A stretch of DNA of 64,000 bases from NCBI GenBank assembly GCA_937916195.1, contig CALFTO010000008.1, positions 4,906 to 68,905 on the forward strand, given 5' to 3'. The translations under genes and the position numbers were made by a program. Positions within the stretch are counted from its first letter, which is position 1, and every line of letters begins with the position of its first letter. The notes beneath the pieces were generated by a model. That model was not told the DNA's origin. It was given only the letters and a program-made list of their open reading frames with translations, and searched no databases. Source of the DNA: an uncultured Clostridia bacterium. Its GTDB lineage: Bacteria > Bacillota > Clostridia > Oscillospirales > Acutalibacteraceae. Below are positions 26,550 through 35,151 of the stretch, one piece after another.

Positions 26550-29360
26550 ATGAAAAAAGTTAAAGAATTATTGGGAAAGATTAAGGCTCTTGACAAAAAG
26601 AAAAAGATTCTCTTAATCGTTCTCTCATGTGTTTTGGTTTTAGCCATTGCAGGCGGTATTGTTGCCGCAGTTGTATTAGGTGGCGGAGAAAGCTTGGGTA
26701 GTGAAACACCGGGCGAAAATACTACATACAGCGTAAGTGTAAAAACTGCCGGTGGTATGGCTTTGTCTGAAATCGATGTTTATATCTACGACAGCAAAAA
26801 GAAAGATAATATGAAAGATATGGGCAAAACCGATGAAAACGGTAAAGTTACCTTTAATCTTCCTAAAAGCAGCAAATATGCAATCGAGCTTTCAGGTGTA
26901 GCAAAAGGCTATGAAGTTGAAGAAAGCTATAAATTCGACGGCGAAAGTGCTGAAATCGTTTTGACTTCTTCAATTATTAAAGGTGAAGATATTTCAACTG
27001 TAACTCTCGGTCTTGGTGATGTAATGTATGACTTCACCGTAATGGCGGCAGATGGCAAAGAAATCACTCTTTCTGATGTTCTTAAAAAGAAAGATTTGGT
27101 AGTGCTTAACTTCTGGTATACAACTTGCTCATGGTGTGTTGAAGAATTCCCACTTATTGAGACTGTTTATCAAGAATATAAAGATAATGTTGAAGTTATC
27201 GCATTAGACCCAATGGACGATATCTCAGCAGTAGAAACATTCCAGAAGCAGTACGGACTTTCATTCCCAATGGCATCTTGTCCTTCTTCTTGGTCAAATA
27301 CTTTTGGAATTCAAGGTTATCCTACAACAATTATGATTGACCGTTACGGTGTAATTTGTCTTGTTGAGTCAGGTGCAGTTACAAGCAAGAGACCATGGGT
27401 TTCTGCTTTTGACCATTTCACAGCAAAAGATTATGAGCAGAAGCTTTGCGTGAACGGCATTGGCGATTTGGTAACACAGATTAAGCCAAATGTTGAAATG
27501 CCAAAATCTGAAAAGATTGCAGAATTAATCAATAAAGGCACCATCAATGTAACATATCGTCCTGAAACTGAAGATGAAAATGCAGAGTATATTTGGCCAT
27601 TTATTGAAGGCGAAAAGCTTGGTCAGTCCTGTATTTATGCTTCAAACAAGGGCATTGATGATTCATATGCAATTATGTATGCCGACGTTGAGCTTAAAAA
27701 AGGTCAGGCGCTTGGTTTCGATTATTTAATTTCCTCTGAACACCTTTGTGATATTTTATATGTAATTGTAAATGACGAAGATATTTTCCAGATTTCTGGT
27801 GTATCTGATAAAGAAAAATGGCAGTCATGCTATCCCGTTGTTGCAGATGAAGACGGCACTTATGAGGTTGCACTGTGCTTTATGAAAGATAGTGACGGCT
27901 CAGCAGGTGATGACACCGTATACATTGACAATATGCGTGTTGTAAATGAAAAAGATATTGACGTTGCAACATATCTTCCTCGTCAGGCTGCCGTAACAAA
28001 AGATGATGGCGATACATATTCATATGTTGATGTCGTTTACAACGAAAAAGACGGTTATTATCATGTTGGTTCTGCTAATGGTCCGCTTCTTCTTGCAGAT
28101 TTGATGAACTATACACAGTTCAATGAAGAAGAGTCACTTCATGACATTGTTTATGCAGGCGATGCAGATAAAGACGGCATAAGTCTTTATGATTATGAAA
28201 AAGACGGCGGTAAGGGAATGGTTAATTATTTCTCTTACGCTTCAAACTCAACTATAAGTGGTACTTGTACAGTTACTAAAGAACTGGCTGAAATGCTCAA
28301 ACAGGTTGCAGAAGTTGCAGGCTTTGAAGATGATGCAAACGAGTGGCTCAAGATTTGTAAGTACTATCAAGCTTACGGTAAGGGTGCAAAACAACTTGAA
28401 GACCCCATTAAAGGTCTTGCAACATTCTCAGCATACACGACAAAGCTTGGTAAAAATGTTTCAACAAACTATTTCTATTATGACAGAGCAATTATTCCAA
28501 GAGGTCTCTTTTCTGAATTCAAGCCTACAAAGTCCGGTGTTTATCGTTTCACTTCAAAGAGTGATTATGAAGAGGGTATTGATGCTTGGATTTTCAACGA
28601 AAAGGGCGAAGTAATCTATACATACGAGCACGACGAAAGAATGTACACTGATACAATCAACTGCTCAATGGTTTATTATATGGAAGCAGGCAAGTCATAT
28701 TATATCAATATGGCATTCTGGGATATTTACGCAACGGGTACAATTAAGTATGATGTTGAATATCTTGGCTCATCATATAAGCTTTTCCGTGCTTGTGCAC
28801 CCGGTTATTTCACTTATGACAGCGATGCTACAGGCGACGTAATGTATGATATCATTTCCGGTGGTATTAAGCCCGTACTTAAAAATGGTAAATATTATGA
28901 ATCTGAGTACAATAGCTTAATTTATGCTGACTTTACAGGTCTTACAAGCATTTTTGACCGTTCAATCATTGAAATGATTGAAATGGGTGGCTTTGATTTC
29001 AGTAAGTCTGAAACTGACGGCGAAATTCTTGCATATATGGCACAGAATGACAATGATGTAGAAAAGACCGATGCATACCTCAAGAAGCTTTGGGGTGAAG
29101 ATTATGATGCAAATGCAGAAATTTATCAGCTTGACGATATTTATGCAGGTCGTTACCACGGCGACGGTCCTGATTTGACAGCTGAAATGCGTGCATATGC
29201 AAAGAAAATTGATAAATCAGGCACAGAAAAAGACGGTTGTGTTGTAGTTGACGAAAGACTTGCAGAAATTCTTCAGCTTCTTATGGATAAATACACATTT
29301 GAAGGCGTAGATAATTCTTGGATTAAGCTTTGCTATTACTACGACAATTTAAGCAAATAA
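26550..29360 (+). CDS. P1: signal-anchored 936-aa surface protein (Ig-like module + TlpA/ResA-like thioredoxin (CSWC) + jelly-roll-like domain + two DGYYH/CYY-type modules flanking a PPC-like beta-sandwich)
   Basis: TM at ILLIVLSCVLVLAIAGGIVAAVVL. Ig-like YSVSVKTAGG...TDENGKVTFNL...GYEV. Redoxin LVVLNFWYTTCSWCVEEFP...GYPTTIMIDRYG. Also FDYLISSE...CFMKDSDGSAGDDTVYIDNMRVV, DGYYHVGSANGPLLL...WLKICKYY, and terminal WIKLCYYYD. Confidence 0.8.
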   Translation: MKKVKELLGKIKALDKKKKILLIVLSCVLVLAIAGGIVAAVVLGGGESLGSETPGENTTYSVSVKTAGGMALSEIDVYIYDSKKKDNMKDMGKTDENGKVTFNLPKSSKYAIELSGVAKGYEVEESYKFDGESAEIVLTSSIIKGEDISTVTLGLGDVMYDFTVMAADGKEITLSDVLKKKDLVVLNFWYTTCSWCVEEFPLIETVYQEYKDNVEVIALDPMDDISAVETFQKQYGLSFPMASCPSSWSNTFGIQGYPTTIMIDRYGVICLVESGAVTSKRPWVSAFDHFTAKDYEQKLCVNGIGDLVTQIKPNVEMPKSEKIAELINKGTINVTYRPETEDENAEYIWPFIEGEKLGQSCIYASNKGIDDSYAIMYADVELKKGQALGFDYLISSEHLCDILYVIVNDEDIFQISGVSDKEKWQSCYPVVADEDGTYEVALCFMKDSDGSAGDDTVYIDNMRVVNEKDIDVATYLPRQAAVTKDDGDTYSYVDVVYNEKDGYYHVGSANGPLLLADLMNYTQFNEEESLHDIVYAGDADKDGISLYDYEKDGGKGMVNYFSYASNSTISGTCTVTKELAEMLKQVAEVAGFEDDANEWLKICKYYQAYGKGAKQLEDPIKGLATFSAYTTKLGKNVSTNYFYYDRAIIPRGLFSEFKPTKSGVYRFTSKSDYEEGIDAWIFNEKGEVIYTYEHDERMYTDTINCSMVYYMEAGKSYYINMAFWDIYATGTIKYDVEYLGSSYKLFRACAPGYFTYDSDATGDVMYDIISGGIKPVLKNGKYYESEYNSLIYADFTGLTSIFDRSIIEMIEMGGFDFSKSETDGEILAYMAQNDNDVEKTDAYLKKLWGEDYDANAEIYQLDDIYAGRYHGDGPDLTAEMRAYAKKIDKSGTEKDGCVVVDERLAEILQLLMDKYTFEGVDNSWIKLCYYYDNLSK

Positions 29361-29399
29361 TTTTTAACTCTTTAATTTATTGAAAAGGAGTTTGAAAAA

Positions 29400-30629
29400 A
29401 TGAAAAAAATTAAAGGCGTTGTTGCTATTATTCTTGTAGTATGTATGCTTGCTACTCTTACTGCTTGTGGTGGTAACAAAACATATAAGGTTGCCGTTAA
29501 AGACGCACTTGGCAATCCTTACACATCTGGCGTAGTTGTTAACTTTATGCAGAATGGCGAAAAAGTTGGTATGCAGGCTTGTGACGAAAACGGAGTAGCA
29601 ACCAAAAAGCTTCCTAAAGGCGAATATACAGTTTCACTGTCATTTACTGACAGTGAAACAGAGTATTATTATGATGAGAATACAAAAGTAACTGCAAGTG
29701 AAAACGAAATTGATTTGGTTTTGGCTTACAAAACCTCTGAAGAGCCCACAATTCTCTATGTTGGTTCAGAAGAGCTTGAGGCCTATGCAGTTTCAGTAGG
29801 TTGTACTTATGTTGAACTTTCAAATGAGCACAGAAATTATTTTCTTTTCACACCTAAAGAAGCAGGTAATTATGAATTCTCTGTAATCGGTGATGTAAAA
29901 ACTGAAATCGGTTATTACGGCGCACCTCATTTTGTTCAGAGCAATAATGTTGCAGAGGTAGTTAACAACAAGTTTACTGTTTCTGTAAGCGCAAGTATGA
30001 TTGGCACAGGCGATAGTGGTACTTCAACTTATGTTATCGGTATCGACGCACTTGATGCTGATTCAAAGAATTGCGTTCTTGCAATTAATCGTCTTGGTGA
30101 TGCAATTAAAACTCTCGCTGACGAGCCATGGACAATCTACCAGAAAACTGTTGACCTTACTGAATACACGTTGCCCGCAGGTGCACAGATTAAAGAATTT
30201 GACTTGACTGCATCAACAGATACATATAAATTTGTATTTAACGAGAATGATGGCTTCTATCATCTTAATTCTGCAAATGGTCCTTTGGTGCTTGTTCGTC
30301 TTGCTGAGGATTGTGATTATATTGCTTGTTTTGAGACAATGCTCGACCGTTCAGGCGTTACAAAGTATTTCTTTGATGAGAACGATGAGTTTGTCAAGAA
30401 AGAAAGCTATTCAGAATGTCTTCTCGAATATATCGAATATGTTGACGAAGCAGAGGGTGTTTATCCTCTTACTGAAGACCTCAAATATATCATTCAGCAG
30501 CGTGGCGGATACGTCGGCTGGTGGGATATTGAAAGCTCAGGCTATATTTTCAAAGACGCAGCTGGTAATAACGATGCAACAATCAACGCAGAAATCGCTT
30601 GGCTCTTGATGTGTTGTTATATTGATTAA
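29400..30629 (+). CDS. P2: lipoprotein (Ig-like module + beta-sandwich + DGYYH...CYY module)
   Basis: Lipobox LATLTAC. YKVAVKDALGNP...CDENGVATKKLPKGEYTV; GNYEFSVIGD; DGFYHLNSANGPLVLV...YPLTEDLKYI...WLLMCCYID. Confidence 0.8.
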   Translation: MKKIKGVVAIILVVCMLATLTACGGNKTYKVAVKDALGNPYTSGVVVNFMQNGEKVGMQACDENGVATKKLPKGEYTVSLSFTDSETEYYYDENTKVTASENEIDLVLAYKTSEEPTILYVGSEELEAYAVSVGCTYVELSNEHRNYFLFTPKEAGNYEFSVIGDVKTEIGYYGAPHFVQSNNVAEVVNNKFTVSVSASMIGTGDSGTSTYVIGIDALDADSKNCVLAINRLGDAIKTLADEPWTIYQKTVDLTEYTLPAGAQIKEFDLTASTDTYKFVFNENDGFYHLNSANGPLVLVRLAEDCDYIACFETMLDRSGVTKYFFDENDEFVKKESYSECLLEYIEYVDEAEGVYPLTEDLKYIIQQRGGYVGWWDIESSGYIFKDAAGNNDATINAEIAWLLMCCYID

Positions 30630-30640
30630 TCTAATGAAGT

Positions 30641-31498
30641 ATGTTTAAGAAAAAAGTATTATCTATTATATCAGTTGTTTTAATACTGTGCATTTTGTTT
30701 TCAGGCTGTAACAGCTCTGACAATAAAGATGCTGAAAAGGTTGCTTACACCGTAAAGGTTGAAACTATTGGCGGAATGCCACTTGAAGATGTTATGATTA
30801 AGGTGTATAAAGATGCCGAAATGCAAAATCTTCAATGGGGCACAGAAACTGACAACGATGGTGTAATTACCTTTAACGCTGAGCCTTCAAAAACCTATTA
30901 TGCAGTTCTTGAAGAAGTTCAAGAGGGATATAAGCTTGAAGCAAATTATGAAATAACAAGCAAAAACACAACTATTTCTCTTGAAACCGTTATTGGTGAC
31001 GCAAAAGATATGTCAGGTGTTACCTACAAGCTTGGCAGTGTGGTGCACGATTTCACAGTAACTGCAATTGACGGAAAAGAATATAAGATTTCTGATTTGC
31101 TTAAAACTAAAAAAGCCTTAGTGCTTAATTTTTGGTATCTCAATTGTCAGCCCTGTAAAATGGAGTTTCCGTATTTACAGCAAGCATATATTGATTATCA
31201 AGATGAAATTGCATTAATCGCTATTAATCCATATGACGGCACAAATGATACGGTTTCTGCTTATGCGGTTGAGAATGAACTCACTTTCCCAATGGTGTCA
31301 GATGAGAAGATTGATTGGGCAAGTATTGTGCAGTTAACAGCTTATCCTACAACTGTTGTAATTGACCGTTATGGTACAATTTGCATGATGCATAGGGGAA
31401 TGGTAACCAGCAAAGAGGATTTCACAAAAGTATTTGAATTCTTTACTGCTGACGATTACAAACAGACTTTAATCAGAAATTTAAATGACATTGAATAA
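30641..31498 (+). CDS. P3: lipoprotein (Ig-like module + TlpA/ResA-like thiol-disulfide oxidoreductase, CQPC)
   Basis: Lipobox LFSGC. YTVKVETIGGMPL...TDNDGVITFNA...GYKL. LVLNFWYLNCQPCKMEFP...AYPTTVVIDRYG. Paralogous to the N-terminal third of P1. Confidence 0.85.
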   Translation: MFKKKVLSIISVVLILCILFSGCNSSDNKDAEKVAYTVKVETIGGMPLEDVMIKVYKDAEMQNLQWGTETDNDGVITFNAEPSKTYYAVLEEVQEGYKLEANYEITSKNTTISLETVIGDAKDMSGVTYKLGSVVHDFTVTAIDGKEYKISDLLKTKKALVLNFWYLNCQPCKMEFPYLQQAYIDYQDEIALIAINPYDGTNDTVSAYAVENELTFPMVSDEKIDWASIVQLTAYPTTVVIDRYGTICMMHRGMVTSKEDFTKVFEFFTADDYKQTLIRNLNDIE

Positions 31499-31520
31499 TT
31501 TTTATAAAGAGGTATATAAA

Positions 31521-31931
31521 ATGAAAAATTTAAAGAAAGTTTTAGCAGTTTTACTCGCTCTCGGAATGCTCTTCTGCTTCTGCGCTTGCGGTGGTAATGA
31601 TGAGGGTAAAACTACTACAACTACCACAACTACAACTGAAAATCAGTCGACAGAAAATGAAAATCCGGTTGAAAACAAAGGCTTTACAGTTACTGTTGTT
31701 GATGAAAACGGAATTGCAGTTTCAGGTGTTATGGTTCAGCTTTGCAAGGATGCTTGTGTTCCTGCAAAAACAGACGATAACGGTAAGGCAACATTCAGCA
31801 TTGAGGTTACTGACGGTTACAAATTATCTGTAATGTCTTGCCCCGAAGGCTATGAGTACACAGGTGAAGCAGAAGTTTATCTTGAAGATGGTGCAACTGA
31901 ATATACTCTTGAATTAAAGGCGGTGGCATAA
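31521..31931 (+). CDS. P4: small lipoprotein (Thr-run linker + single Ig-like module)
   Basis: MKNLKKVLAVLLALGMLFCFCACGG lipobox, TTTTTTTTT linker, FTVTVVDENGIAVSGVMVQL...TDDNGKATFSI...GYEY. AAGAGG RBS before ATG 31521; the track ORF starts at 31485. Confidence 0.8.
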   Translation: MKNLKKVLAVLLALGMLFCFCACGGNDEGKTTTTTTTTTENQSTENENPVENKGFTVTVVDENGIAVSGVMVQLCKDACVPAKTDDNGKATFSIEVTDGYKLSVMSCPEGYEYTGEAEVYLEDGATEYTLELKAVA

Positions 31932-32941
31932 TGGAAAAACTTAAAAAATTAGATAAAAAAGTAATTATCGGTATTGTTGCTGCTGTTCTTGCAGTTGTGA
32001 TTGCTGTTGTTGCTGTTGTAATTGCAACAAGTGATAAACCTGCGAATACTGACCCCGACAATACAAATTCTAATGAATATGTAGCCAATGCAAATGATGA
32101 TGATTCATCAACATCAACAAGCGAAGATGAAAGCACATCTGATGAAGAGTCTTCAAGTGAAGAAGACACAAGTTCCGAAGAAGATGCTCAGAACGGCGAA
32201 GAAGATAAGACCAATGGCAGTGATAAAGGCGACGGTACTACAGCAGTGCAGAAGCCCACAGCTACAAATCCCGATGGTGATGAAATTCTCGGTGCAGGTA
32301 GCAAGGACCAGCCTTATCTTGAAACTCCCGGTAGTGATTTTGCTGTAACAACAGCAAAAGTTCCCGCAGGCAAAGCTCTTTATTATGATATTTACCGTGT
32401 AGGTGGTATGTATTTGACAATTAATGATGCTGATGCTTATGTAATCTGCAACGGCACAAAGTACACTGCTAAAAATGGTAAGGTTTCTTTTAAAGTTCCT
32501 AATGCTTTGGCAAGTGATGCAGTTTCATTCCAGATTGGTAACAATGGTTCATCTGCAAAGAGCTTCACAATTAAATTTGCAAATCTTAAAGGTAGCTATG
32601 CTAACCCTGAAAAGATTTCAAAGCTTACAGGCGATTTTGAAAAGAGCCTTGCAGCAGGTGTTGAAACAGGATATTATTATGAATATAAAGCTGAAAAAAC
32701 AGGTACAATTCGTTTTTATATTGTTGAAGAAACAAAGGACAGCATTATGGTTGTAACAAATAACAGAAACTCTGCCCAGAGAACAACTGAAGCAGACGTG
32801 TTCACCGATGCTGACGGTAATGAGTATATTGAGCTTGAAGTTCAAAAAGGCGACGAAATTATAATTAATATTGGTGCAATGCCGACAAAGCGCGGTAAAT
32901 ATCCCGCAACAGATATTACTTGGCGCGGAGTGTATGCATAA
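31931..32941 (+). CDS. P5: signal-anchored protein (acidic Ser/Glu/Asp linker + two PPC-like beta-sandwich repeats)
   Basis: TM IIGIVAAVLAVVIAVVAVVIA, linker DDDSSTSTSEDESTSDEESSSEEDTSSEED, repeats GSKDQPYLE...YYDIYRVGG... and GSYANPEKI...GYYYEYKAEKTGTIRFY. ATG overlaps the P4 stop (TAATG). Confidence 0.75.
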   Translation: MEKLKKLDKKVIIGIVAAVLAVVIAVVAVVIATSDKPANTDPDNTNSNEYVANANDDDSSTSTSEDESTSDEESSSEEDTSSEEDAQNGEEDKTNGSDKGDGTTAVQKPTATNPDGDEILGAGSKDQPYLETPGSDFAVTTAKVPAGKALYYDIYRVGGMYLTINDADAYVICNGTKYTAKNGKVSFKVPNALASDAVSFQIGNNGSSAKSFTIKFANLKGSYANPEKISKLTGDFEKSLAAGVETGYYYEYKAEKTGTIRFYIVEETKDSIMVVTNNRNSAQRTTEADVFTDADGNEYIELEVQKGDEIIINIGAMPTKRGKYPATDITWRGVYA

Positions 32942-32954
32942 ATAACTAAAAATT

Positions 32955-32994
32955 ATCCACTTTTTTCTAAAATAATTGAAAAAAGTGGATTTTA
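32955..32994 (+). terminator. rho-independent terminator ending the P1-P5 operon
   Basis: ATCCACTTTTTT (32955-32966) pairs with AAAAAAGTGGAT (32979-32990), then TTTTAT. Confidence 0.75.
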
Positions 32995-32997
32995 TTA

Positions 32998-33026
32998 TTG
33001 CATTATAAATAAAATAGTGATAAAAT
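32998..33026 (+). promoter_or_regulatory. sigma-A-type promoter for P6
   Basis: -35 TTGCAT (32998-33003), 17-bp spacer, TGaTAAAAT (TAAAAT at 33021-33026). Confidence 0.45.
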
Positions 33027-33093
33027 ATTTAGGAATATTTATGTAATTGTTAGACCTTAATGACAATTGCACAAAATAAAAGGAGGAAAAATC

Positions 33094-35151
33094 ATGAAAT
33101 CCATGATGAAAAAAACATTAAGCGTAATTATTGCGTTGGCTATGATTCTTGTACCAATGTCAGTATTCGCATCTTCTACAGGTGAGTTGCCTATCGGTGC
33201 AAGTACATTTGCTTCATACGATGGTGATAATAACTGTGAATATACTTATGTAGCTGATGCGGATGGAACAGTAACTCTTTCTTTTTATACAAACAACTGG
33301 TATTGTAATGTATATGAAGATGACGCCTCAACAGGCCCATGTGTTGGTGGCGGATATTGGGGTCTCGGCAGTGAAGTTGCTTTTGATGTAACTGCTGGTA
33401 AAACTTATGTAGTTGTTATCCAGGGCCAAACTGCTGGTGATAATATTATGTTTATGGGTAGCTTTGAAGAAGGTTCAGCAGGTGGTTCAGCAGATGGTTC
33501 AACTTATGAAACAGCTGTTGAAATTCAGAGCGGTGCTATGGAATATGTTGATGGTATGGCTCAGAAGTACTTTAAGATTGCTGCCGACTACGGTGTAGAG
33601 TATACTTTAACCGTTCAAGGAACTATGATGGCAAGTTTCGATTTATATACTGAAGGCAGAATGGGAATGGGTTATTCTTCAAGTGGTGCTTATGGTACAC
33701 CAGCAACTGCAACAGTTTATGCAAATAACGGATATGTTACTTTTATGATTCAGGAAACTGGCAGAATGGGTGCGGATGTTCAGATTACATTATCCGCTAC
33801 TCCCGTTTCTACTGTAGGCACATATGATGACCCCGAAGAGTTAACAACTCTTGGTCAGGCAACAGCAGATTGCAGCACAGGTGCTCATTGGTATAAATGG
33901 ACTGCAACTGAAGCAGGTGTATTTACTGTTTCTGTACCTATGTCACTTGTTATGATGGGTAGTGCATCTTATGGTATCTTTACTGTTAATGGTGAAACAC
34001 CCGCAAACATTGAAGAGGCAATGGCATCTCAGGAGGTTGAAGTTTTTGCTGGTGATGTTGTTACATTCTATGTAAGAGATTTTGAGAGCACAACTATTGA
34101 TTTCTCAACTGAATTTGTTGCTGGTGCTACACTCGGCGGCGGTGACGAAGGTGGCGACGACATCGGCGGTGGTGATGACATCGGCGGTGGTGAAGAAGAT
34201 GTGAACTACATAAAGAGTGATACTCTTCTTGAAGTTGGCGAAAACGCTTATGTTGTAGATGGTCGATACCAGTACACAATCTATGCTTTTGAGCCAACTG
34301 AAGAAGGTAAATATACATTCTCATCTGCTGATAGTGTAATGGGTATCGCAAGTAACAATGGTGCTTGGGTTACAACTGAGCCAAGTGCAGAAACAGTTAA
34401 CGCGAATGAATTTTCTTGGAATTGCGAAAGCGTTGGCCAGTCAATTTGGGTTGCTGTAATGGCTGATACAAATGTTGCTAACATTACAATCACAAGAGAA
34501 GACCTTGAGGTTAAAGAAGAGATTGAGTGGGTTGTTTATGAAAATATAACAACTCCTGAAGCTTTCACATATGAAGGCGATGTTGCTGACCTTGTTTATG
34601 TTGACACTCTTGAAGATGAAGTAGTTGATACAGCAGTCCTTGGTGACGATGGATACTATCACCTTAACTCAGCAGATGGTCCTATCCTTTACGTTGATAT
34701 TATGGGCTTAATGGATGATACAATGTTATCAGCAGTTGAAGCATATGGTTATGGTCAGTTGACAGCTGTTTTCCAGGATGAAAACTTAGTTGTTCTTTCA
34801 AAGACTGATTATAATGAAGCTTTTGCAGAGTATGCTGCTTGTGCAGATGCAGAAACAGGTTTATATCCTTTAACAGCTGACTTAATGGAAATCTACAAGA
34901 ATGTAGGTACAGCTAAGGGTTGGTACGGTGAGAATGGTGCTGTAGGCGGTACAGAAGATGACGCTTGGATGTTTGCTTGCTATTATGTTCCCGCTGTTGT
35001 AGATGGCGGTAACGAAGGTGGCAACGTTCCTAACCCTGAAATTCCCAACACAGGCGCTGAAGCATTTGGTGTTGCATTTGCTATGATGGCTACTGCAGCT
35101 GCTCTTGGTGCAACAGTTGTTACAACAAAAAAGTCAAAGAGAGTTAAATAA
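33094..35151 (+). CDS. P6: secreted, predicted sortase-anchored protein (PPC-like beta-sandwich repeats + DGYYH...CYY module + C-terminal IPNTG sorting signal)
   Basis: Signal peptide MKSMMKKTLSVIIALAMILVPMSVFA (AAAGGAGG RBS before ATG 33094). Repeats such as TYDDPEELTTLG...HWYKWTATEAGVFTVSV. DGYYHLNSADGPILYV...YPLTADLMEI...WMFACYYVP. C-terminus IPNTG + AEAFGVAFAMMATAAALGATVV + TTKKSKRVK. Confidence 0.85.
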   Translation: MKSMMKKTLSVIIALAMILVPMSVFASSTGELPIGASTFASYDGDNNCEYTYVADADGTVTLSFYTNNWYCNVYEDDASTGPCVGGGYWGLGSEVAFDVTAGKTYVVVIQGQTAGDNIMFMGSFEEGSAGGSADGSTYETAVEIQSGAMEYVDGMAQKYFKIAADYGVEYTLTVQGTMMASFDLYTEGRMGMGYSSSGAYGTPATATVYANNGYVTFMIQETGRMGADVQITLSATPVSTVGTYDDPEELTTLGQATADCSTGAHWYKWTATEAGVFTVSVPMSLVMMGSASYGIFTVNGETPANIEEAMASQEVEVFAGDVVTFYVRDFESTTIDFSTEFVAGATLGGGDEGGDDIGGGDDIGGGEEDVNYIKSDTLLEVGENAYVVDGRYQYTIYAFEPTEEGKYTFSSADSVMGIASNNGAWVTTEPSAETVNANEFSWNCESVGQSIWVAVMADTNVANITITREDLEVKEEIEWVVYENITTPEAFTYEGDVADLVYVDTLEDEVVDTAVLGDDGYYHLNSADGPILYVDIMGLMDDTMLSAVEAYGYGQLTAVFQDENLVVLSKTDYNEAFAEYAACADAETGLYPLTADLMEIYKNVGTAKGWYGENGAVGGTEDDAWMFACYYVPAVVDGGNEGGNVPNPEIPNTGAEAFGVAFAMMATAAALGATVVTTKKSKRVK
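34159..34194 (+). repeat. 18-bp direct tandem repeat x2 inside P6 (encodes DIGGGD/DIGGGE linker)
   Basis: GACATCGGCGGTGGTGAT (34159-34176) and GACATCGGCGGTGGTGAA (34177-34194), 17/18 identical. Confidence 0.9.

Follow-up and report, generated by a model that had tools for sequence, protein, structure and literature searches.

What does a protein module do that recurs in three neighbouring surface proteins of an uncultured gut bacterium and belongs to no named family? This question is raised by a cluster of six genes, termed here P1 to P6, of an uncultured Clostridia bacterium (Oscillospirales, Acutalibacteraceae; assembly GCA_937916195.1). The window, i.e. the whole stretch of DNA that was analysed, comprises 64,000 nucleotides of contig CALFTO010000008.1 (positions 4,906 to 68,905 of the forward strand), and the coordinates given below refer to it unless another contig or locus is named. 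An initial annotation of this DNA had described the module by motifs such as DG(Y/F)YH and W-x3-C-(Y/K)-Y in P1, P2 and P6, with a second, more diverged copy in P1. The analyses presented here show a real module whose copies are homologous and which no named family covers; as a signature domain, it marks a surface thioredoxin system that is restricted in lineage. A tentative answer as to its function can be given: a beta-sandwich and the module together may form the head which engages the substrate in a surface thiol-disulfide relay and which is possibly thiol-active, and judged by sequence and gene context this reading has a probability of roughly 0.4.

All quoted motifs were found in the three proteins at the places described, and the alignments between them were significant. 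DG(Y/F)YH begins at residue 501 of P1, 284 of P2 and 528 of P6, and W-x3-C-x-Y at residues 599 and 924 of P1, 401 of P2 and 634 of P6. BLASTP aligned P2 with P6 over 269 amino acids (8e-16), P1 with P2 (5e-8) and P1 with P6 (4e-5). A profile built from family members and run by hmmsearch detected, all on the plus strand, one copy in P1 (copy A, residues 460-607, 27927..28370, 2.4e-27; hhalign probability 99.9%, E 4e-32), one in P2 (residues 241-409, 30120..30626, 2.6e-67) and one in P6 (residues 487-641, 34525..34989, 7.5e-56). When the whole assembly (1.9 Mb, 145 contigs) was searched in six frames, only the copies in P1, P2 and P6 matched. The modules of these three proteins are homologous and do not represent a chance likeness. 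The length of about 130 amino acids, which had been proposed initially, has to be corrected, as the copies comprise 150-170 amino acids and start about 40 residues ahead of DGYYH. The proposal that the module ends the folded protein was borne out: P2 terminates exactly with it, and in P6 it is followed just by a linker and the IPNTG sorting signal. The module is also the best conserved part of P2 (75-86% identity vs. 61-72% for the whole protein among the same orthologues).

A defined fold had been suspected for the module, and structure prediction agreed with this. When modelled alone by AlphaFold2 (AF2; 106 sequences), it showed a mean predicted local distance difference test (pLDDT) score of 94.1, a predicted template modelling (pTM) score of 0.88 and a compact mixed alpha/beta structure with the order b-b-b-b-b-a-b-b-a-b-a-a-b (b, strand; a, helix). 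Additionally, mean-field direct-coupling analysis (DCA) of 609 distinct copies (effective number of sequences, Neff, 353) gave coherent contacts, for example V299-I365, V297-L357, V297-C405, C340-M404 and those of Y337, R300 and V354 with C406. This covariation supports a compact sheet-plus-helix domain independently of AF2.

The assumption that the module lies outside the named families held in Pfam, NCBIfam, PHROGs and the PDB sequence searches; neither a Pfam or NCBIfam family nor the alignment statistics spoke against the initial annotation. Pfam-A and NCBIfam gave no match for the module in the six proteins of the window at E ≤ 1, and no Pfam-A match at E ≤ 1e-3 was obtained over the module in 75 diverse full-length members. 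In a comparison of 23 isolated modules to Pfam-A at E ≤ 10 no family recurred, and each weak match occurred in one member. PHROGs yielded one weak match to a family of unknown function (3.8e-4) and otherwise none. In the PDB sequence-profile searches the entries 2jpu/2q00 were matched (E 0.0024, 65 residues) and were dropped as probably compositional, being outside the 50 Foldseek matches listed; beyond these, nothing was obtained. The Foldseek search of the module model gave a best E-value of 0.49 with a template modelling (TM) score below 0.2 against the PDB and a best E-value of 0.22 against BFVD. From these two fold searches with the predicted model, there is a strong suspicion that the module has a new fold. 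In the literature, nothing specific was found on the module motif or on polyferredoxin-thioredoxin systems.

The module family is large, narrow in range and patchy. Its members stem from gut MAGs of the Oscillospirales type, the majority of which are labelled as ruminant hindgut samples. An exhaustive profile search of 1.84 billion representatives, in clusters at 50% identity, gave at least 1000 clusters at E ≤ 1e-3 and 653 at E ≤ 1e-10, and nearly all of the best 150 representatives carry DG[YF]YH together with W[LM]F-x-C-[CY]-Y. The named hosts are all uncultured gut Clostridia (Candidatus Fimenecus, Acutalibacteraceae, Faecousia, Oscillospiraceae), and in many records the source was the hindgut of goat, sheep, yak, buffalo or deer. 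A homologue with 95% identity stems from Candidatus Fimenecus, which belongs to the genus of the window. The module was present in 2 of 24 other species of the genus, in 3 of 201 genomes of the order (the window's own genome counted) and in none of 400 other genomes across the phylum. Positive genomes possess three to four copies each, located in proteins of the sizes of P1, P2 and P6. The match list is inflated by P0125 (4220 amino acids), which was rejected as a family member; its 33 DGFYT hairpins match positions 6-50 of the profile only. P0125 consists of 33 units of about 104 amino acids with Pfam fragments of Sm_like and CarbopepD_reg_2 and is probably unrelated.

The thioredoxins of the system are encoded by P1 and P3. 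P1 (26550..29360, 936 amino acids) consists of a signal-anchor transmembrane helix, a prealbumin-like immunoglobulin (Ig) domain, a ResA/TlpA-type thioredoxin, a beta-sandwich, module A, a PPC-like beta-sandwich and a putative diverged C-terminal module, in this order. Its thioredoxin (residues 156-280, Pfam AhpC-TSA/Redoxin) possesses a CSWC motif at 193-196 and matches the NCBIfam ResA subfamily with 1.4e-23; NCBI names the orthologues of P1 'redoxin domain-containing protein'. P3 (30641..31498) is an operon partner without the module and encodes a lipoprotein of 285 amino acids (lipobox FSGC) with an Ig-like domain and a ResA/TlpA-type thioredoxin (residues 132-258, CQPC, NCBIfam ResA 6.7e-24). 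P2 (29400..30629) is a lipoprotein of 409 amino acids (lipobox LTAC, residues 20-23) with an Ig-like domain, a PPC-like beta-sandwich and the module, and all of its 1241 homologues are unnamed or 'hypothetical'. P6 (33067..35151) encodes a secreted protein of 694 amino acids with a signal peptide, an uncharacterised N-terminal region, a beta-sandwich, the module and a C-terminal sorting signal of IPNTG, a hydrophobic and a basic segment; no Pfam family matched it. All six genes lie in the same direction on the plus strand according to the list of open reading frames, and by sequence all six products are exported or anchored, P1 and P5 by signal-anchors, P2, P3 and P4 by lipoboxes and P6 by its signal peptide. 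Pfam and NCBIfam recognised in P1 to P6 only the thioredoxins of P1 and P3 and weak Ig-like or prealbumin-like matches after the anchors.

The same surface character was found in the family as a whole. Pfam detected the Ig-like domains Big_1 (23), CarboxypepD_reg (17) and SpaA (12) as well as Redoxin/AhpC-TSA (19) and dockerin (4) as companion domains in the 75 diverse members, and in P6-type homologues the anchor is replaced by LPXTG, dockerin, choline-binding repeats, InlB-B repeats or F5/8C. Every module copy is, as predicted from such signals, extracytoplasmic. A methionine sulfoxide reductase (Msr), a cytochrome or another known client domain was found by Pfam neither in the operon proteins nor in the 75 diverse members.

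The operon was compared in 79 loci from species genomes; many of these end at contig ends and the counts of partners, which were identified by neighbour clustering and targeted BLAST within 8 kb, are lower bounds. The order P1-P2-(P3)-P4-(P5)-(P6) was found in about 70 of the 79 loci. P4 (31485..31931, plus strand) encodes an Ig-like lipoprotein of 148 amino acids, is kept in 52 of these loci and gave sub-threshold Pfam matches to CarboxypepD_reg and SpaA, under the curated cut-offs. P5 (31931..32941, plus strand; 336 amino acids) consists of an N-terminal signal-anchor, an acidic linker and an uncharacterised region and is kept in 31 of 79 loci. In many loci of the Faecousia/Oscillospiraceae type (L040-L070, e.g. 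L057:7227-8516), P3 is exchanged for a protein of 900-1400 amino acids with an N-terminal thioredoxin and a C-terminal module, so that three module proteins follow each other. Because P3 is replaced by such a protein, the fusion of thioredoxin and module must have arisen in more than one architecture.

Besides the thioredoxins, a putative source of electrons was found among the neighbours. At least 31 of 79 loci possess a gene for a membrane protein of 480-530 amino acids which has two Fer4_5 motifs of the NapH type (Pfam), a ferredoxin-like 2x[4Fe-4S] segment, a further transmembrane helix and a C-terminal Redoxin domain with the motif WCTPC or WCGPC. Translationally coupled upstream of this NapH-thioredoxin fusion, in at least 27 loci, lies the gene of a polytopic protein of 250-310 amino acids with the invariant end (I/L)C(T/M)EC(I/V)G(L/M)G, for which no Pfam match was obtained. 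Furthermore, a large subtilisin-like peptidase of family S8 is encoded near at least 26 loci, and components of oligopeptide ABC transporters were found in a subset. Among the neighbour clusters that recur in the 79 loci, of which few neighbours were scanned with Pfam, none of the CcdA/DsbD type was conspicuous, and the window's own genome was not searched for it. Among 41 relatives, the full NapH-thioredoxin fusion occurred in exactly the four module-positive genomes (G000, G209, G216 and G007) and was missing from all 37 module-negative genomes, one of which has a NapH-only paralogue. This co-occurrence is supportive rather than conclusive.

In the genome of the window, the CTECIGLG-tailed protein (L094:3-668, end NICTECIGLG) and the NapH-thioredoxin fusion (L094:681-2138; 87% identical to the Fimenecus orthologue) are encoded at the start of contig C54, whereas in 26-31 of 79 related loci this pair is found next to the operon. 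The S8 peptidase is encoded at C143:22585-25995 (minus strand, locus L097), near the end of the stretch examined, in an open frame of 2537 amino acids which is 57% identical to the operon-adjacent S8 peptidase of locus L077. Contigs C143 and C54 may be direct neighbours in the actual genome, because the S8 gene and the gene of the CTECIGLG-tailed protein are arranged divergently in a Fimenecus relative (L015). The open reading frame next to the NapH-thioredoxin gene of C54 was considered as a broken P6 and rejected; it encodes an unrelated repeat protein with a dockerin-like tail.

A beta-sandwich with a G-x-Y-x-F-(S/T) strand had been postulated ahead of the module, and the structural data on P2 support this. 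The full-length AF2 model of P2 (68 sequences) reached a pLDDT of 91, and its Foldseek search gave beta-sandwich neighbours only (PPC, HA70, CPE, CueO). The matches to PPC and collagen-binding domains, with E-values from 5e-5 to 1e-3 and target TM-scores of 0.5-0.6, included the s3a/s3b domains of collagenase ColG (5iku, E 5e-5) as well as 5sv5 (target TM 0.62) and 1nqd (target TM 0.55). This PPC or collagen-binding-like beta-sandwich comprises residues ~100-235 of P2 (29697..30104, plus strand, strand GNYEFSV), as located by Foldseek. In P6 it was assigned by BLASTP to residues ~400-486 (34264..34524, plus strand, GKYTFSS), and the alignment of P2 148-408 with P6 406-641 (8e-16) spans sandwich and module. 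In P1 a PPC-like beta-sandwich occupies residues ~620-750 (28407..28799, plus strand, GVYRFTS) with inferred boundaries; it aligns colinearly with that of P2, FKPTKSGVYRFTS against FTPKEAGNYEFSV, at low probability. Pfam PPC (PF04151) did not match P1, P2 or P6 at E ≤ 1. By analogy with PPC and collagen-binding domains, the sandwich probably binds a polymeric substrate. Most module copies follow such a sandwich. P0066, a metagenomic homologue of 588 amino acids, contains two modules in tandem (239-418 and 422-587) with no sandwich between them, and because of this the pairing is usual and not obligatory.

The conserved residues of the module were determined as weighted frequencies from the 609 distinct copies already described (P2 numbering). 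D284 (0.96), G285 (0.98), Y287 (0.99), H288 (0.97), G294 (0.99), P295 (0.91), Y344 (0.96), L361 (0.97), W401 (0.96), C405 (0.88) and Y407 (0.90) are strongly conserved. About 98% of the copies keep a cysteine at position 405 or 406. A second cysteine is specific for the subfamily and occurs at C340 in the P2 type, in column 105 in the P6 type and in column 113 in the type of P1 copy A; C340 is present in about 64% of the copies with C406 vs. about 6% of those without it. In the DCA, C405 pairs with V297, which in turn pairs with L289, and C406 contacts Y337, R300 and V354. From their sequence pattern, the cysteines are read as a thiol that is retained, be it free or next to a local disulfide, and that may be structural or redox-active, with no clear exposed nucleophile.

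These observations can be combined into a putative pathway. The NapH-like membrane polyferredoxin would transfer electrons outward onto the thioredoxin fused to it, a step which is proposed because of the analogy with NapH-like systems (PMC8238504), and the electrons would then pass to the ResA/TlpA-type thioredoxins of P1 and P3. In P1, P2 and P6, the heads, each consisting of sandwich and module, would engage an extracellular target, most likely a disulfide-bonded protein, which would then be digested by the associated S8 peptidase. Extracellular disulfide-bonded proteins are favoured as the target because of the S8 peptidase, the peptide-uptake neighbours and the binding domain of the collagenase type. 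Within the module, the cysteine at 405 or 406 and the subfamily-specific second cysteine may be kept reduced or cycled by the thioredoxins, and the electrons would be consumed by a target which the module-bearing heads hold or themselves contain. We infer which way the electrons flow, what the target is, any thiol chemistry of the module and its role as client. A more far-reaching form is distinctly doubtful, namely that the module has a new fold and is the last acceptor, with an active thiol, or else the catalytic head in an undescribed route of reducing-power export in strictly anaerobic gut Clostridia.

Several observations weigh against the proposed relay and against a tight coupling of the module to the thioredoxin operon. 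In the window's own genome, the NapH-thioredoxin gene and the S8 peptidase lie on other contigs than the cluster, and the co-occurrence of module and fusion spans just two independent lineages (three genomes of one genus and one of another family). P6-like proteins with dockerin or choline-binding scaffolds are also encoded outside the operon. A thiol role is called into question, as about 7% of the copies have Leu, Val or Ile at position 405, about 12% possess a single cysteine, and about one third of the P6-type copies are without a second cysteine at the usual positions. C405 is probably buried and points into a hydrophobic layer, because it covaries with V297 on the strand face which also holds L289. 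The initial annotation had considered a ligand site or a defined fold on the basis of the conserved Trp, Cys and Tyr residues; the replacements by Leu, Val or Ile and these contacts weaken a direct ligand or catalytic role of Cys405, this one residue. The candidate of an exposed catalytic thiol at this position is weakened accordingly and not fully rejected, as position 406 compensates: where 405 is Leu, Val or Ile, 406 is nearly always Cys.

The same features of Cys405, as well as the copies with a single cysteine, fit a possible, if rather doubtful, alternative, in which the module is a pure ligand-binding head of the adhesin or lectin kind without thiol chemistry. Y287, H288, Y344, W401, Y407 and D284 would then bind a glycan, a peptide or a host or dietary polymer, the cysteines would be structural, and the thioredoxins would act elsewhere or on whatever substrate is bound. 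Aromatic residues abound in the conserved site, the partner is a beta-sandwich of a substrate-binding type, and the anchors (LPXTG, dockerin, choline-binding, lipoprotein, transmembrane) are interchangeable, as in adhesins and modules of the carbohydrate-binding module (CBM) type. However, no likeness to a CBM, lectin or adhesin was found by sequence or fold, and such a head leaves unexplained why a cysteine is kept at 405 or 406 in about 98% of the copies and why thioredoxin fusions occur repeatedly.

It is unlikely that the module is an autonomous enzyme with a new fold and a site of the Cys/His/Asp type or a Tyr/His site, such as a hydrolase or a transferase for polymers of the surface or the diet, whose thiol is kept reduced by the thioredoxins. 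D284, H288 and Cys405/406 are nearly invariant and accompanied by conserved tyrosines, the module is the most conserved part of the proteins, and some homologues are borne by dockerins, as cellulosomal enzymes are. However, the DCA contacts suggest that H288 and C405 lie on opposite faces of neighbouring strands, two strands apart, the fold shows no likeness to known thiol enzymes such as papain, NlpC/P60, sortase or YkuD, and three to four paralogous copies per operon are unusual for a catalytic domain.

Slightly less probable again is a protein-protein assembly domain without an own ligand, which would join P1, P2, P6 and the thioredoxin proteins in the manner of cohesin and dockerin. The three to four copies on separately anchored proteins in each positive genome, the strict synteny of the operon and the tandem copies of P0066 would be in accordance with this, whereas the D, H and Y residues which stay invariant across paralogues diverged to about 30% identity fit a common small site better than pairwise interfaces, and P6-type proteins also occur far from the operon. 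That there is no domain at all and that the motifs agree by chance or low complexity, for which the weak fourth copy might be quoted, is practically excluded by profile E-values down to 1e-67, the 653 clusters at E ≤ 1e-10, the confident fold and the coherent covariation.

This fourth copy, the second and more diverged one of P1, is supported in part, by hhalign over its C-terminal columns and by marginal matches in orthologues, whereas hmmsearch gave no significant match. It putatively comprises residues ~770-934 (28857..29351, plus strand), with NGKYYE in place of DGYYH, a helical insert of about 55 amino acids and the end WIKLCYYYD. With hmmsearch, only the last 14 residues matched (independent E-value, iE, 0.28, not significant). 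With hhalign, the profile of the P1 orthologues matched the module profile with 92% probability (E 5.5e-7) over the C-terminal 56 columns only, which carry Y..Y..D..G-x-x-x-L/V-x-x-x-L followed by W-x3-C-x-Y. A colinear alignment of P1 608-936 with the sandwich and module of P2 needed an insert of about 55 residues and reached 14% probability; it pairs GVYRFTS with GNYEFSV, NGKYYE-SEYNSLIYADF with NDGFYHLNSANGPLVLVRL, GCVVVDERLAEIL with GVYPLTEDLKYII and WIKLCYYYD with WLLMCCYID. Among the P1 orthologues, marginal matches to the module profile were found for the N-terminal half (P0178, residues 729-817, iE 2e-4) or the C-terminal half (iE 0.001-0.018), in the expected order, and the C-terminal region of P1 is 76-100% identical among the 120 best homologues. 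By its sequence, the C-terminus of P1 is a probable degenerate copy of the module with an insert.

The surroundings of the operon vary. Upstream of P1 (23514-26357, plus strand), pfkA, aroK and a gene for a spoIVB-type peptidase are located, which were also found in the closest relatives (L015-L017 and L037); in more distant genomes, unrelated genes occur upstream of the operon. This change of upstream genes and the patchy distribution, with the module in 2 of 24 further species of the genus, suggest that the operon is an accessory island. Just downstream of P6 (35204-36187, minus strand), a cysteine-rich protein of 327 amino acids is encoded, which had been labelled FliB-like in the initial annotation and for which no Pfam family was found at E ≤ 0.001. 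Because the NapH-thioredoxin gene takes its place in two relatives of the same genus (L015 and L016), the downstream junction of the operon varies within the genus.

Thioredoxin relays that face outward are known to serve the maturation of cytochromes, the synthesis of the spore cortex and the repair of oxidised methionine. A relay for attacking external substrates would, if true, be a new use of this principle; as proposed, it would be fed by an iron-sulfur membrane protein and not by CcdA or DsbD, and it would end in a domain without a known relative. In its most far-reaching form, it would represent an extracellular 'protein disulfide reductase' machine, independent of CcdA/DsbD, which breaks the disulfide bonds of extracellular dietary or host proteins before proteolysis by the S8 peptidase and peptide uptake, and it would bear on the breakdown of disulfide-rich proteins by uncultured Clostridia of the herbivore gut. 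No other part of the system is as strongly conserved or as poorly understood as the module, and as a compact and confidently modelled domain, which should be easy to express, it offers a practical entry point. Even if it merely binds, it represents a new domain family of at least 1000 clusters at 50% identity, whose members are annotated as 'hypothetical' or by their neighbouring domains.

Among the known systems, the PPC and collagen-binding domains of clostridial collagenases (ColG s3a/s3b, 5iku; 1nqd) and the PPC domain 5sv5 of B. anthracis have the same fold as the sandwich. However, the proteins with this sandwich contain no peptidase domain, and the likeness concerns the sandwich and not the module. 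The cysteine pattern of the module, a near-invariant cysteine and a subfamily-specific second one, may recall that of thiol-dependent reductases with a catalytic and a variable resolving cysteine (Msr, Prx, ArsC); this is an analogy only, as there is no sequence or fold match to these proteins and Cys405 appears to be buried.

The thioredoxins of P1 and P3 resemble ResA, TlpA, CcmG (DsbE) and StoA in their matches to these models (besides those to ResA, 1.6e-15 to StoA), their CxxC motifs and their anchors. However, they reach 84-85 bits against a curated cut-off of 170 and are thus not equivalogs, the context of cytochrome c maturation or the spore cortex is absent here, and the proteins are enlarged here by Ig, PPC-like and module domains. 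The ResA/TlpA/CcmG/StoA systems have no counterpart of the module.

For the NapH-like proteins NapH, NosR and PceC, it was proposed that they pass electrons to extracytosolic redox domains which serve modular partners (Meheust et al. 2021, PMC8238504). These systems share with the one described here the polytopic Fer4_5 iron-sulfur membrane protein. They differ in the acceptor, which is an FMN-binding domain flavinylated by ApbE in those systems and a fused thioredoxin here, and in the partners, which are respiratory reductases or oxidases there and surface proteins with thioredoxin and module here.

The closest characterised analogue in logic is found in S. pneumoniae, where the surface thioredoxin relay of CcdA1/2, Etrx1/2 and MsrAB2 has a client enzyme as its last member (PMC3914529). 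In both systems, lipid-anchored, outward-facing proteins of the thioredoxin fold are encoded together with a supplier of electrons in the membrane and a client at the surface, the latter being presumed in the case of P1 to P6. The supplier differs, as it would be the NapH-like [4Fe-4S] polyferredoxin-thioredoxin with its CTECIGLG-tailed partner instead of CcdA, and the presumed client consists of the module and the PPC-like sandwich instead of a methionine sulfoxide reductase. Finally, the gene context with its S8 peptidase suggests that the system of P1 to P6 serves proteolysis and not the repair of oxidative damage.

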